Shown here one piece after another: positions 1,832 to 63,835 of a stretch of 64,000 bases of DNA (the first letter of the stretch is position 1; each line of letters starts with the position of its first letter). The notes beneath the pieces were generated by a model, which did no database searches, was not told the DNA's origin, and was given only the letters and a program-made list of their open reading frames with translations. Source of the DNA: a virus. Taxonomy: Duplodnaviria > Caudoviricetes. The stretch lies in IMG/VR virus record IMGVR_UViG_3300025606_000003, positions 32,001 to 96,000 of that record. One strand, 5' to 3'. The position numbers and the translations under genes were made by a program.

Positions 1832-1877
1832 GCTGATAGCTAAGAAAAAGACGCAACGAGCAGTCAGAGACTGCTCG
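1832..1877 (-). terminator. Hairpin + T-rich tract + TTAGCTATCAGC box
   Basis: 9-bp stem cgagcagtc/gactgctcg (1857-1877), then minus-strand ttgcgtctttttc-TTAGCTATCAGC. The same box ends units at 62568 and 63296 and recurs at 63985. Confidence 0.6.
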
Positions 1878-2447
1878 CTCTCGGCGCGCGTCCGCCGCAG
1901 AATGTCGTACTACAGGGCCGCCCGCCGGGGCGACGGTCTCGTATTGACTCAAACCCAATCTGGTGGGTTCCAACCTGCCGCAGACCTTGGCATGAGGTTG
2001 GCTCACGTGTTTGTTGGCACACGCTGAAGCCTGGACTGCGATGTTGCCGCCACGGTCGGGCGCTCCCCGACGCGTCCGTCGGATTGGGTTTGCGACGTGC
2101 TAGCGTTTCGCAAAACCACAACTTTCTGCCGAGGGGTACGCCCCAAGGCGAGGCTGTCGCAACAACCTCCGGTGTGCGGGTGGCAGAGCACTGTATCCCA
2201 CAGTGTTGACTTCGCTGCAGTCTTGCTGCAGCTGGCTTGGACCCTTTTTGGCTTCGACGCACTGACCAAGCAGAAGTGCGTAGGTTCCGCGACGACCTCT
2301 CGGTCGCCGGTACTTCACCGGGCGCCGGAACAGCGCTTTCGGGAAGGCCGATTTATCGGCGTCAGCAGCGACTCGGGTGCTGCCGCAGCAGCGTCGATGG
2401 CGGCGGAGTCGTTGCTATCGCCAGCCATCCAAGATAGCTATTACCCT
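1843..2447 (-). ncRNA. Candidate large structured non-coding RNA (about 600 nt)
   Basis: Intergenic tract without a credible ORF; at least 10 helices, including an 11-bp long-range helix 1950-1960/2082-2092; GAGA tetraloop on the minus strand; bounded by the conserved promoter and the terminator box. Confidence 0.65.
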
Positions 2448-2454
2448 ATCAATC

Positions 2455-2483
2455 TATATGCCCGGTTTTTGCCCAATATTTAG
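2455..2483 (-). promoter_or_regulatory. Bipartite promoter CTAAATA-N14-GGCATATA (copy 1)
   Basis: Identical boxes and 14-nt spacer length at 63253-63281 and 63929-63957. Confidence 0.7.
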
Positions 2484-60636: not shown

Positions 60637-60671
60637 GGTTAGATATCCCGGTTAGATATCAATTAGATATC
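60637..60671. repeat. Three tandem TTAGATATC sites
   Basis: ggTTAGATATCccggTTAGATATCaaTTAGATATC in the intergenic gap. Confidence 0.9.
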
Positions 60672-62514
60672 AGTGTTCGATCTCAGCGCCGTGGGCCGTT
60701 GAACCTAACCCGGCGCCAAAGCCGTTACTGTGCGCCATCGCGTGCTCAAGGCCGTGCAACACCGGGTGCGCAACGGTGTGCGCGGCTTCATATGGCAGCG
60801 CGAGACTGTGCGGCAGTAAATTAGTTGGGTTGCCGGTGTTCGCAAAATTAGTCGGGCCGTTCAACGGGTGGCCGATAGCATCTGCGCCAAGATTGCGCGC
60901 CGCCTGCTCAATCGGCGCGCCAATGTTATGCTCATAGGCGCGCCATAGATTCTGCGCAGTTTCTGGGACTGCTCGCTGGATCTGTTTGCCAAGCTGGGTT
61001 TTCATGTCGCCAAACCGAGCAGCCGTGTTAAGCTGCGCGTCGCTAAGCCGCAGCGCTGTTTGATGGCCGAACTGTGACAGGTTTCCTGCATACCGGGAAA
61101 ACGTCGGGAGCATTTGTTGCACGCGCGGGTTTGCAGCTGCCGCGCCCAGTGCGCCGGCAGCCGTTGTGCCGGCTTGCGCAGCTGTGGTGCCGCCAGCAGC
61201 AGCAACAGCCGGAGCAGCCGCAGCTGCGCCGGCCACAGCCGGAATTGCTGCAGCAGCTCCGGCGCCCACACCCAGGGCGCCCTGCCCAATCCGCATGTTT
61301 TGGGCTTCTCGCGGATCTGTTACTTGCTGGCTTGTATTTGGGTTGTACCAGCGACTCAGCGTGTCTTGATAGCCGGCCCGGCCGAACAACCCGCCGATTT
61401 GCTTTGGCATCAGCGCGTCTGTGCCAGCAGCCGAGCGGTTTGGAGTTAGGCCTGTCGGTGCAGCCTGCTGTGGGGCCGCGCCAGTAGTTACCAGCGGCGA
61501 TTGGGCTGGCTGCAAAGCTGGCGGTGAGCTTGGCGGCGAGCTCAGCGGTTGCGGTTTAGGCGGCGCCAGCGACGTGGCCGACGTGACAGGCGTAAACTGC
61601 CCAGGAGCTTTGCCGGCTGCCGGGCCGGGCCTATTCAGCGACAGCGTGCCAGACGTTGAAGTTTGGTTTCCTGGTTGTGAATACGGCGCGAACTCTTGGG
61701 CCAACTTTAACCGCACAAGTTTGCCGAACTGATATGGCTGCATATCGTCAGCTGTCTTTACAGCCCCGGCAATCTTCGAGCTATCCGGCGAGTTCTTTGC
61801 GCCGAATGCAGCGTTGCCGTTGAGCTGGCCCTTGTTGCCCAGGGCGCCGAAAGCCTGAATCGGATTGTGCTGCGGATTGGAGCCCCCACCGACAGGCCCG
61901 GCAGGCTGTGTGTTTGCGGGATGCTGCGCAGCCGGTTGAGCAGCAGCATTTCCAGCGGGGGGCGCCATCCCCATCGGCAGCGGAATCATCGGCGCCGGCA
62001 TGGACATGCGCTTTAAAAGCATGTTTTGCGGCACGAAACGCGGGTCGCGGCCTTCCTGTCCAGCATGATGCGCCTCCATCATTTCGCGCAACGGCTTCGC
62101 AAGAACTACGGCTAATTTACCGAAAATGGCTTCGACAGAGTTGGAGCTGTGATTTTTGCCGTCTGGGCTCGAGTTATGTGTTTCGTCCTGTTTTGGCTGG
62201 ATTTCTGTACTGTCCTGGCCTGCGTAAGTCGGTTTGTCGTTCTGTGGCATCTTGACTTGCACCATCCCAGAGTTGGCTTGCTTTATCTCGTTGCCCAGTA
62301 TAGAGTTACGCTCAGTTTTTTTGGCGTTAGCAAAAACTGATAAAACGTTATCAAGTACGGCCAGCGCGGCGGCCTTCTCTTTGGATTCTGGTTCTTGCTT
62401 ATTTGCGTACATAGGCAGCTTCTTTTGGTTCGGGTATTCGTGCGCCCAGCGTTTGGCAATATCCGGATGTGCCGCCCAAAGAAAACGGCGCTGTTTTTCG
62501 GATTTAAACGGCAT
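60670..62514 (-). CDS. Low-complexity modular putative virion protein with MPFKS..QRR N-domain
   Basis: MPFKSEKQRRFLWAAHPDIAKRW; EKAAA, IKQAN, SKIAG, VKTAD, YQFGKLVRLKLA. Confidence 0.65.
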   Translation of the reverse strand: MPFKSEKQRRFLWAAHPDIAKRWAHEYPNQKKLPMYANKQEPESKEKAAALAVLDNVLSVFANAKKTERNSILGNEIKQANSGMVQVKMPQNDKPTYAGQDSTEIQPKQDETHNSSPDGKNHSSNSVEAIFGKLAVVLAKPLREMMEAHHAGQEGRDPRFVPQNMLLKRMSMPAPMIPLPMGMAPPAGNAAAQPAAQHPANTQPAGPVGGGSNPQHNPIQAFGALGNKGQLNGNAAFGAKNSPDSSKIAGAVKTADDMQPYQFGKLVRLKLAQEFAPYSQPGNQTSTSGTLSLNRPGPAAGKAPGQFTPVTSATSLAPPKPQPLSSPPSSPPALQPAQSPLVTTGAAPQQAAPTGLTPNRSAAGTDALMPKQIGGLFGRAGYQDTLSRWYNPNTSQQVTDPREAQNMRIGQGALGVGAGAAAAIPAVAGAAAAAPAVAAAGGTTAAQAGTTAAGALGAAAANPRVQQMLPTFSRYAGNLSQFGHQTALRLSDAQLNTAARFGDMKTQLGKQIQRAVPETAQNLWRAYEHNIGAPIEQAARNLGADAIGHPLNGPTNFANTGNPTNLLPHSLALPYEAAHTVAHPVLHGLEHAMAHSNGFGAGLGSTAHGAEIEH

Positions 62515-62567
62515 GGCGCGATTCCCTATCAGAATAGCGTTATCTTAGCAAACTGATATGGAAAGCA

Positions 62568-62630
62568 CTGATAGCTAAAAAAAGGCCGCAAAGGCCTTCG
62601 TGGTGAGTTGACGGCGTCGCCAACTCACCA
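62568..62630 (-). terminator. Tandem hairpins, U-tract and TTAGCTATCAG box
   Basis: tggtgagttg/caactcacca stem; aaggcc-tttgc-ggcctt-ttttt merging into the box on the minus strand. Confidence 0.75.
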
Positions 62631-62634
62631 CTAA

Positions 62635-62793
62635 TCAGGTCACGTCCCAGCTGTTCAGCCGGACGTGCCGGCCGTCGAGGCTCTTGGCCACCAGGCGGTT
62701 CAGCCGGTGGTTGTGCCGCTTGAGGGCGCGGCGGATCTTGGCGGCGCCCCGCGTCTTGGGGCAGTGCCGCCAAGCCCGTTGCCAGTCGGTCAT
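62635..62793 (-). CDS. Small basic protein (52 aa)
   Basis: SD ggaggt; MTDWQRAWRHCPKTRGAAKIRRALKRHNHRLNR... Confidence 0.6.
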   Translation of the reverse strand: MTDWQRAWRHCPKTRGAAKIRRALKRHNHRLNRLVAKSLDGRHVRLNSWDVT

Positions 62794-63246
62794 GGTGACC
62801 TCCGGTGTTAGGCTGCAGGATTTACAAACGCATCCTGCTCGCGTTTCGCGGTGGCGGCTCGCTACGCCCAGCTGCACTTCCCAGCTGTATTACACCGGAG
62901 TTATCCGGCTTCACCAGAATTATCTGGGTCAGACTTCGTTGTACACCCGCCAGTCACGGCATGGGGGAGCGCCACTTCCCCTTCGCCAAGAGAGTTGCTA
63001 GCTCTTCTTGGCGCCATCACGAGCCGGGCGCTGGCGACGAGCGCCAACGGGGTTCGTGATGGGGCGGGCGACGACGGCAGCAACCTGCCACGACTTCGTC
63101 ACCAGCCGGCACCGACCACGACGGTAAGCCATAAAGCTATACCTCCGCGGGACGCATCTCGCTGCGTCCTAGCGTTCAGCTCGCGCCTACATAGGGCTTT
63201 ACGGGGGAGCTGAAGTCTCCCCGTACACAGATACGAATATCCGTGT
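62794..63246 (-). ncRNA. Candidate large structured RNA/leader (about 450 nt)
   Basis: At least 12 hairpins in series between promoter copy 2 and the 52-aa gene; no credible ORF. Confidence 0.6.
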
Positions 63247-63252
63247 ACATTT

Positions 63253-63281
63253 TATATGCCGTGTTTTTGGCCTGTATTTAG
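63253..63281 (-). promoter_or_regulatory. Bipartite promoter CTAAATA-N14-GGCATATA (copy 2)
   Basis: Exact boxes and spacer length shared with copies 1 and 3. Confidence 0.7.
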
Positions 63282-63295
63282 CTTGCAGCAAAACA

Positions 63296-63345
63296 GCTGA
63301 TAGCTAAGAGAAACCGAGCACGCGGAGCCCGTAGGCCCCGCTGCT
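63296..63345 (-). terminator. Hairpin + tttctc + TTAGCTATCAGC box
   Basis: gcggggcc-tacg-ggctccgc stem extended by agca/tgct, then the box. Confidence 0.6.
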
Positions 63346-63367
63346 GGTTTCCCCTGGCGCCGGTGGC

Positions 63368-63835
63368 TCAGACTGCCGAGCCGCAGCCGGTTGCGCAGGG
63401 CGCGCCCGGCGCGGCGACCTGCTGGTGGCCGCACCAGGTGCAGTTCACCAGCCGCTCGGTCTGGCTCTTCCGCGCGGCATCCAGCTGCTTGCGCAGCTTG
63501 AGGATCTCCGCGTCCCTTGCTCGAACTGTTCGCCACAGCGCAGCGGTCTCCGTCACCGGCGCGCTGTGATCGAATTGCCGCCACTCGCGGAGCTGGCGGG
63601 CCGCGTAGTCAACCGCTGTGACTACGCTGACAAACATTACGCCGCTGGCGAGCGCGGCCGTCGTCGCCAGGGCGGCGACAACCGGCCAGTGGGGCAGGTC
63701 GAGCACCGTCACTTTGGCGGCGGCCAGCACCGCGTCGAACGCGGTGAACGTGGCGGCGCCGGCGACCACGGTTGTGGCCGCCATGAGGACCAACCCGGCG
63801 GCCAGCCAAAACACGAACTTGACGAAATCGACCAT
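63368..63835 (-). CDS. Membrane protein with coiled coil and C-terminal Zn ribbon
   Basis: 155 aa, SD aaggagg; two hydrophobic segments; CTWCG...CATGC. Confidence 0.65.
   Translation of the reverse strand: MVDFVKFVFWLAAGLVLMAATTVVAGAATFTAFDAVLAAAKVTVLDLPHWPVVAALATTAALASGVMFVSVVTAVDYAARQLREWRQFDHSAPVTETAALWRTVRARDAEILKLRKQLDAARKSQTERLVNCTWCGHQQVAAPGAPCATGCGSAV

Follow-up and report, generated by a model that had tools for sequence, protein, structure and literature searches.

The stretch of DNA analysed here (hereafter, the window; 64,000 nt) corresponds to bases 32001-96000 of a 107-kb IMG/VR virus record (IMGVR_UViG_3300025606_000003; CheckV completeness 52%) and carries all of its long genes on the minus strand. 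Its source is an uncultured phage of ~200 kb with its own multisubunit RNA polymerase (RNAP); the phage encodes an RNAP beta'-like protein whose nearest cultured relatives, at ~25% identity, are those of Salmonella phage Arash and some Vibrio phages; the Arash virion packages both RNAP and a sigma factor (PMC10585845). The region that concerns us is bordered by genes of 155 aa (63368-63835) and 614 aa (60670-62514), and it is this region that the original prediction, made from the letters alone, had described as an ornate ~450-nt leader RNA with a switch sequestering the Shine-Dalgarno (SD) sequence of a small basic protein of 52 amino acids (aa). We found that this region is laid out as a 115-nt 5' untranslated region (UTR), a gene for a 44-aa Arg-rich micropeptide and a 204-nt spacer, the last of these preceding the 52-aa gene (Table 1).

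The micropeptide gene and its relatives

A DNA similarity search against 50,697 phage records returned no match, and six contigs that encode an identical 52-aa protein have letter-identical leaders and hence give no covariation. Three homologues of the leader were nevertheless obtained from other metagenomes, bringing the known copies, with that of the window, to four. One, L021 (IMGVR_UViG_3300017788_000069), was found by a promoter-pattern scan and is aligned by nhmmer over leader positions 2-403 (E 2.7e-19); the other two, L115 and L114, are Logan contigs reached via a neighbouring AAA-ATPase cluster (nhmmer E 2e-19 and 5.9e-10, and 87% and 71% identity to L021, respectively). Samples with matches include SRR22077868, SRR33642011 and 3300017788. 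Exact-pattern scans of IMG/VR for the promoter with its hairpin, or for the 62-nt element described below, matched the L021 contig alone. A loose promoter pattern gave 72 loci in IMG/VR, roughly the chance number apart from L021 (by our own estimate of the expectation), and a pattern scan of genome contigs gave four matches with low model scores, also close to what we estimate for chance. When IMG/VR and the complete genomes of related phages were searched with a peptide profile, no further copies of the micropeptide came to light, and its module is missing from the complete related genomes G002 and G007. A match in L004 was discarded as spurious and out of frame.

The micropeptide open reading frame (ORF) is 44 codons long in the window, 49 in L021, 45 in L115 and 48 in L114, and in all four an ATGGCT start preceded 8-9 nt upstream by GGAG(G) is aligned, as is a UAG stop embedded in an invariant CUAGCAA. 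Its insertions and deletions preserve the reading frame, pairwise pN/pS ranges from 0.26 to 0.62, and changes at codon position 3 dominate in each of the six pairs (e.g. 5/2/14 and 9/7/18). Moreover, the ORF frame (frame 0) reaches a BLOSUM62 score of 105 as compared with 14-65 in the other five frames. The conserved core can be written RRxRCRL..S.QVA....RPITNP.G.RRQ, the RPITNP.G.RRQ motif being only partly invariant, with just R, I, N, P, G and RRQ unchanged in the four copies. All four copies thus retain an unbroken reading frame that has its own SD and is subject to purifying selection. A conserved ORF was one of three results that the original prediction had itself named as refuting it, and the region cannot be the single ~450-nt non-coding leader first envisaged; judged by these comparisons, the 44-aa ORF is a real gene, evolving like a protein, which gene callers had annotated in two of the six identical contigs.

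Neither the micropeptide nor a profile built from its four sequences matched any entry in Pfam, PHROG, NCBIfam or PDB, and an index of 5.8 billion proteins contained the micropeptide only as its own sequence. Read-through of the UAG, as in recoding, was rejected, as the post-stop frames are unlike in the window and L021 and end within ~23 codons. A likeness of NP.G.RR to the ribosome-associated protein Sra/S22 was likewise dropped, finding no support in searches of Pfam, NCBIfam and PDB.

Conserved RNA elements

The seven local hairpins named in the original prediction are all found where it had placed them, and all belong to the minimum-free-energy (MFE) fold of 62780-63250 (minus strand). 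This fold has -223.7 kcal/mol as compared with -185.7 +/- 6.4, a z-score of -5.96, and none of 100 dinucleotide shuffles was as good. In a 200-nt sliding fold scan, the entire block 62500-63600, coding parts and terminators included, was the most structured of the 27 kb scanned, and the z-score is therefore not specific to the supposed leader. The structure is conserved only in part. Compensatory changes keep the pairs of the 5' hairpin, the stop-codon hairpin and the 62-nt element, in the last case those of its middle stem, whereas the hairpins of the 5' UTR and those within the ORF (GGACGCA, CCAUCACGA and others) are broken in L021, and most of the predicted hairpins are not conserved.

The 5' hairpin retains 10-11 pairs in all four sequences, three of them changed on both sides, and is kept in L021, L115, L114 and also L016, where the loop is UACG as against UUCG in the window. 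The GGGG/CCCC core of the adjacent hairpin 2 is invariant in 4/4 sequences and, having no covariation, is uninformative. In the stop-codon hairpin, the stem has 10-12 pairs in all four sequences despite differences in the C-termini that they encode, and the three pairs adjoining the CUAGCAA loop are all changed on both sides. When the 5' hairpin, hairpin 2 and the inner stop hairpin were scored together, 88% of cells were paired, with six double-changed pairs (reached by 3 of 500 shuffles) and a covariation score of 0.342 versus 0.188 (0/500 shuffles; slid controls 0.03-0.20).

The 62-nt element, which consists of three hairpins, is ~80% identical between the window and L021 (52 of 65 aligned positions invariant) and has three compensatory pairs in its middle stem. 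It is found in the window, L021 and L115 and is cleanly missing from L114. Comparison of L114 (~1085-1110) with L021 (11978-12041) shows it to be present or absent as one block between short CCGC repeats, which suggests gain or loss by microhomology. A covariance model of the element revealed no further true copy, a match in L006 being merely a terminator hairpin that resembles the third stem. A 'P1-like' closing helix considered in L021 was also discarded, since L115 and L114 show that the strand in question belongs to a T-arm/acceptor-like minihelix.

The Rfam scan proposed at the outset brought out no relevant family: Rfam 15 at gathering thresholds gave 0 matches in the whole window, and a search of L001, L015 and L016 at E up to 1 gave a lone chance match, to an isrG fragment elsewhere. 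Similarly, ARAGORN called no tRNA and no tmRNA in the window, L001, L005, L016 or L021.

The 52-aa gene, its predicted Shine-Dalgarno helix and the borders of the proposed cassette

The 52-aa protein belongs to a family for which a profile search gave 17 representatives at 50% identity. Its AlphaFold2 model (mean pLDDT 79) has helices at 3-8 and 15-39, essentially one long basic helix. No match was found in Pfam, PHROG or PDB, nor by Foldseek of the model against PDB, and a search of the ESM Atlas returned only unnamed clusters. The 52-aa gene has a codon score of 0.19 and, on the strength of its family, is a real gene. Eleven loci from five branches of the family were read (L003, L015/L016, L099-L101, L102-L104 and L105-L107), and in these the gene follows 4-18 nt behind a preceding gene of ~216-217 aa or 83 aa (~80 nt behind it in the L105 branch). 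Neither the structured leader seen in the window nor any other long structured leader precedes the gene in these diverged lineages; the gene itself is not in L021, L115 or L114. The possibility that the leader is a decayed copy of the ~217-aa partner gene was rejected, with no match to that gene anywhere in the genome. GC content at third codon positions is 0.96 in 62635-62793 and 0.86 in 63368-63835 as compared with 0.60 in the adjacent 614-aa gene, which points to a history of the two cassette genes different from that of the core genes.

An alternative raised in the original prediction was a non-coding RNA with its cognate RNA-binding peptide. Because the 44-aa peptide travels with the RNA and the 52-aa protein does not, this idea fits the 44-aa peptide better, as far as the distribution of the two genes can tell. 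By analogy, our guess would be that the micropeptide binds RNA via its Arg-rich N-terminus, the possible targets including hairpins of its own transcript.

The pairing on which the proposed switch rests was confirmed: CTCCGGTGT (62892-62900) forms a perfect complement of ACACCGGAG (62800-62808), and the latter overlaps the GGAGGT (62798-62803) located 5 nt before the ATG of the 52-aa gene at 62793. As had also been proposed, the helix and a local hairpin are mutually exclusive, with pair probabilities in the predicted ensemble of 0.55-0.76 for the SD helix and 0.20-0.24 for the hairpin (62904-62908/62895-62899). When the upstream 438 nt were shuffled 2000 times, a perfect complement of at least 9 nt to the 23-nt SD/start region occurred in 47 cases (p ~0.024). 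Mean paired probability in the initiation region of the 52-aa gene (-14..+3) is 0.61, versus 0.57 +/- 0.12 for 28 ordinary genes of the phage, so that the start of the gene is not unusually occluded. Furthermore, the conservation of 62892-62900 is that of the hairpin and the UGUAAU beside it, and does not reflect a role in the helix. L021, L115 and L114 do not have the 3' strand of the helix; in its place they have a T-arm-like hairpin, next to which a further stem is predicted in L021 and L115. With homologues that lack both the 52-aa gene and the 3' strand, the SD helix is specific to this phage and beyond comparative support. From the folding model, the 9-bp helix is a possible and plausible brake on translation of the 52-aa protein in this one sequence; if it acts at all, it would be a lineage-specific acquisition of recent date, as opposed to a riboswitch class.

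An 11-mer of the 52-aa SD region, ACACCGGAGGT, recurs identically at 2165-2175 (minus strand) of the window, in its other large non-coding region (1843-2470, minus strand), which has the same promoter type and a 5' hairpin. Owing to this identity, the 1843-2470 RNA could pair in trans with 62892-62900.

The promoter copy from which the leader had been proposed to start is an instance of a real motif: CTAAATA, 13-14 nt and GGGCATATWA recur at four places in the genome and, within the phage clade, at at least 17 places in related loci (L003, L005, L006, L016, L021, L102 and L105), often with a hairpin directly downstream. The motif does not match the sigma-70 consensus. Upstream of it stands the TTAGCTATCAG box, whose exact copies in the window number four and in every case directly follow a terminator-like hairpin with its T-run; with at most one mismatch allowed there are seven matches as compared with 0.36 expected, and variants occur in related phages. 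No terminator-like sites were found within 62800-63250, and a strong terminator stands at the end of the unit. What lies within such borders varies, the 52-aa gene having other contexts in L003, L015 and others, and the micropeptide module adjoining different genes in L021, L114 and L115.

Two neighbouring arrangements may be added. A third TTAGCTATCAG box (window 62515-62578, minus strand) is followed by CATATCAG and an inverted CTGATAG, without a GGCATAT box; the 614-aa gene is thus without a promoter of this type, and its expression may rely on another promoter class or on transcription reading through the 62581-62599 terminator. On the other side, past the end of the window, L001:3013-3156 (minus strand; ~window 64072-64215) holds a 47-aa basic ORF with an SD GGAGGT, in a cassette of its own before promoter copy 1. 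For this early region, genes encoding small basic proteins seem to be typical.

Table 1. Features of the micropeptide/52-aa locus, in order along the minus strand (window coordinates).
Feature	Position	Strand	Remarks
TTAGCTATCAG box, left cassette boundary	63297-63307	-	right behind the hairpin terminator of the 155-aa gene upstream
Clade-specific bipartite promoter motif (CTAAATA, 14 nt, GGCATATAAA)	63251-63281	-	putative start at ~63247
5'-terminal hairpin, 11 bp, UUCG loop	63223-63248	-	MFE fold
Hairpin 2, GGGGAG/CUCCCC, then conserved AAAGCCCU	63204-63222	-	GGGG/CCCC core invariant in four sequences
SD GGAGGT of the micropeptide gene	63141-63146	-	8 nt before the ATG
Micropeptide gene, 44 aa, Arg-rich	62998-63132	-	ORF intact, start and stop aligned in four sequences
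Stop-codon hairpin	62984-63013	-	presents UAG (62998-63000) in an invariant 7-nt loop, CUAGCAA
62-nt three-hairpin element	62852-62913	-	CCGGA-UAAC-UCCGG, CAGCUG-GGAAGUG-CAGCUG, GGC-7 nt-GCC
5' strand of the predicted SD-sequestering helix, CUCCGGUGU	62892-62900	-	overlap with the conserved hairpin CCGGA-UAAC-UCCGG, 3' arm
3' strand of the helix, ACACCGGAG	62798-62808	-	overlaps the GGAGGT SD of the 52-aa gene
52-aa basic protein gene	62635-62793	-	one long helix predicted
Right boundary	62568-62627	-	hairpin 62600-62627, intrinsic terminator 62581-62599 with T-run, next TTAGCTATCAG box

ORF-poor relatives, readings of the locus and known systems

In the three homologues, the same promoter, 5' hairpin and micropeptide gene stand at the start of putative ORF-poor transcripts of ~1.1 kb (L021:11551-12625, L115:664-1690 and L114:671-1725), and the gene-free gaps behind the shared promoter measure ~1.07-1.25 kb. 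Two segments of L021, 12102-12233 and 12551-12618, match 1895-2028 and 2181-2248 of the window (E 4.6e-14 and 7.6e-5 respectively). A tRNA-like T-arm hairpin, GUGGG-UUCGAAU-CCCAC or a close variant, is present in L021, L115 and L114, with an adjoining acceptor-like stem predicted in L021 and L115; ARAGORN, run on L021 alone of the three, did not call the L021 hairpin a tRNA. In L016 (1471-2234), the same promoter and a homologous UACG-loop 5' hairpin are followed by ~730 unrelated, ORF-poor nt ahead of a putative peptidase gene that we take, from our reading of its sequence, to be YiiX-like, and a segment of the L016 leader has a homologue at L005:988-1340 (E 4.2e-14).

We consider that the locus is probably a mobile early-gene cassette comprising two small basic proteins and three short conserved RNA elements between borders made of terminator-promoter modules. 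In such a cassette, the clade-specific promoter would drive a single ~670-nt transcript ending at 62581-62599, which would open with a stable UNCG-capped hairpin, probably protecting its 5' end. Next, as the comparison shows, comes the micropeptide gene, with a ribosome site of its own and a stop codon presented in the invariant loop of a conserved hairpin, and after it the conserved three-hairpin element. Behind this element, in this phage only, stands the gene for the 52-aa basic helical protein, which elsewhere lies within ordinary operons; its translation would be lowered by the 9-bp SD helix in competition with the conserved local hairpin. The composite terminator/TTAGCTATCAG/promoter modules, recurring through the clade, probably mediate the shuffling of small early genes, and such shuffling is the probable cause of their mosaic distribution.

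Several observations weigh against this reading. Covariation statistics are thin when no more than four sequences are known, of which two are 87% alike. Considered by itself, codon usage in the 44-aa ORF is ambiguous (score -0.01, as compared with -0.23 for the null and 0.31 for real genes), and we infer the start site, the single transcript and the translation of both ORFs. Lastly, the homologues continue for ~750 ORF-poor, partly conserved nt in place of a second gene, which hints that the conserved unit is mainly an RNA.

This last point leads to an alternative that we regard as unlikely, though it is the chief rival, in which the locus is mainly a large structured non-coding or dual-function phage RNA, with the micropeptide ORF embedded in it and the 52-aa gene a passenger. 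The long gene-free stretches behind the shared promoter speak for such an RNA, as do the homology of the 3' domains of L021 to the other non-coding region of the window, the minihelix (its hairpin in three homologues, its adjoining stem in two), the behaviour of the 62-nt element as a discrete inserted or deleted RNA module, and the different 730-nt ORF-poor leader that follows the same promoter and 5' hairpin in L016. Nonetheless, the best-conserved stretch besides the short elements is an ORF that evolves like a protein, neither Rfam nor the tRNA/tmRNA search recognised the RNA, most of the predicted hairpins are not conserved and, in the window, a protein gene replaces the long 3' RNA.

At the other extreme, it is improbable that only the two small genes, the 5' hairpin and the terminator hairpins have a function, the remaining structure being a by-product of GC richness and of leftovers of recombination among cassettes, and the SD complement a coincidence. 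The equally extreme fold z-scores of neighbouring coding sequence and the lack of conservation of most hairpins would agree with this; so would the weak alignment of the spacer to the minihelix region in the homologues, as of a decayed remnant, and the dispensability of the 62-nt element in L114. Against it, the stop-codon hairpin and the middle stem of the 62-nt element have undergone compensatory changes and their loops are invariant, both of which argue that these structures are under selection.

A more elaborate proposal, drawn by analogy and in our view a long shot, is that the promoter, 5' hairpin, 44-49-aa peptide, CUAGCAA stop-codon hairpin and 62-nt element make up a peptide-RNA regulatory module, where the micropeptide would bind the hairpins of its own transcript and thereby tune downstream transcription by the phage RNAP, or translation. 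If this were so, the 52-aa SD would become accessible in this phage once the peptide occupied the CCGGA hairpin, and the other large RNA, through its identical ACACCGGAGGU (2165-2175), could be a competitor in trans for the anti-SD strand. Finally, a ~450-nt riboswitch-like leader that senses a ligand or the 52-aa protein and toggles the 52-aa SD is very improbable, for although two exclusive structures are predicted (0.76 and 0.24), the 9-nt SD complement is uncommon by chance and its 5' strand falls within a conserved element, the leader contains a conserved ORF, the 52-aa gene and the helix's other strand are missing from all leader homologues, long structured leaders are absent from every relative of the gene that was read, no Rfam family matches and the predicted occlusion is ordinary.

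The cassette reading corrects a tempting one, in that a hairpin-dense 'leader' had concealed a micropeptide gene that callers annotate inconsistently, and it reveals no new riboswitch class. It defines a small undescribed family, pairing an Arg-rich micropeptide with hairpins in RNA, among freshwater jumbo phages that are uncultured and possess an RNAP of their own, and its short conserved elements are concrete targets for peptide-RNA binding and reporter work. It also documents a clade-wide promoter/terminator boundary motif that appears to move small early genes.

SD-sequestering cis-regulators include riboswitch expression platforms, RNA thermometers and hok-type mRNA fold-back. The locus resembles these in its predicted long-range helix, which covers the SD and competes with a local hairpin, but differs in having no Rfam match, a platform that is not conserved and a predicted occlusion that is not above the genome norm. 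Unlike the hydrophobic membrane peptides of hok-like type I toxins, both peptides here are Arg/Lys-rich and hydrophilic. Dual-function RNAs such as SgrS/SgrT and RNAIII/hld fold and also encode a small peptide and, as here, combine a structured transcript and its conserved hairpins with a conserved micropeptide ORF, whereas the present case is a phage early cassette with no known base-pairing target.

In the lambda N gene leader with nutL, an Arg-rich antiterminator is encoded beside the boxB hairpin, and lambda N/boxB and Tat/TAR are pairs in which a peptide binds a hairpin. The likeness to lambda N, which serves as a lead, lies in a small Arg-rich protein encoded just behind an early promoter, in transcript hairpins with conserved loops, and in structure around a ribosome site that may affect translation. 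However, there is no sequence or profile similarity to N (Pfam, PHROG, NCBIfam and PDB), the peptide is less than half the size of N, and no boxA or boxB consensus was recognised by eye in the micropeptide transcript.

Giant phages have conserved early promoters, small RNAs derived from 5' UTRs and structured leaders, such as 201phi2-1 sRNA005 and the phiKZ gp182 leader (PMC11512511). An RNAP of their own, highly conserved early promoters before hypothetical genes and conserved leader structure are shared with the phage studied here, but its leader has no sequence relation to theirs, contains a translated-looking ORF and has no premature terminator. In T4-like phages, composite promoter-terminator motifs known as PeSLs are established as shuffling small early genes (Arbiol et al. 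2010, PMC2839356; Comeau et al. 2014, PMC4122927). The motif found here differs in being composed of TTAGCTATCAG and CTAAATA-N14-GGCATAT, in that we infer recombination at the motifs, and in a promoter probably read by the phage-encoded polymerase and not by host sigma-70. As with PeSLs, a repeat consisting of a terminator hairpin and an early promoter flanks small early genes of mosaic distribution, and the terminator-plus-promoter motif that repeatedly borders the small early genes of this phage is, in that sense, PeSL-like.

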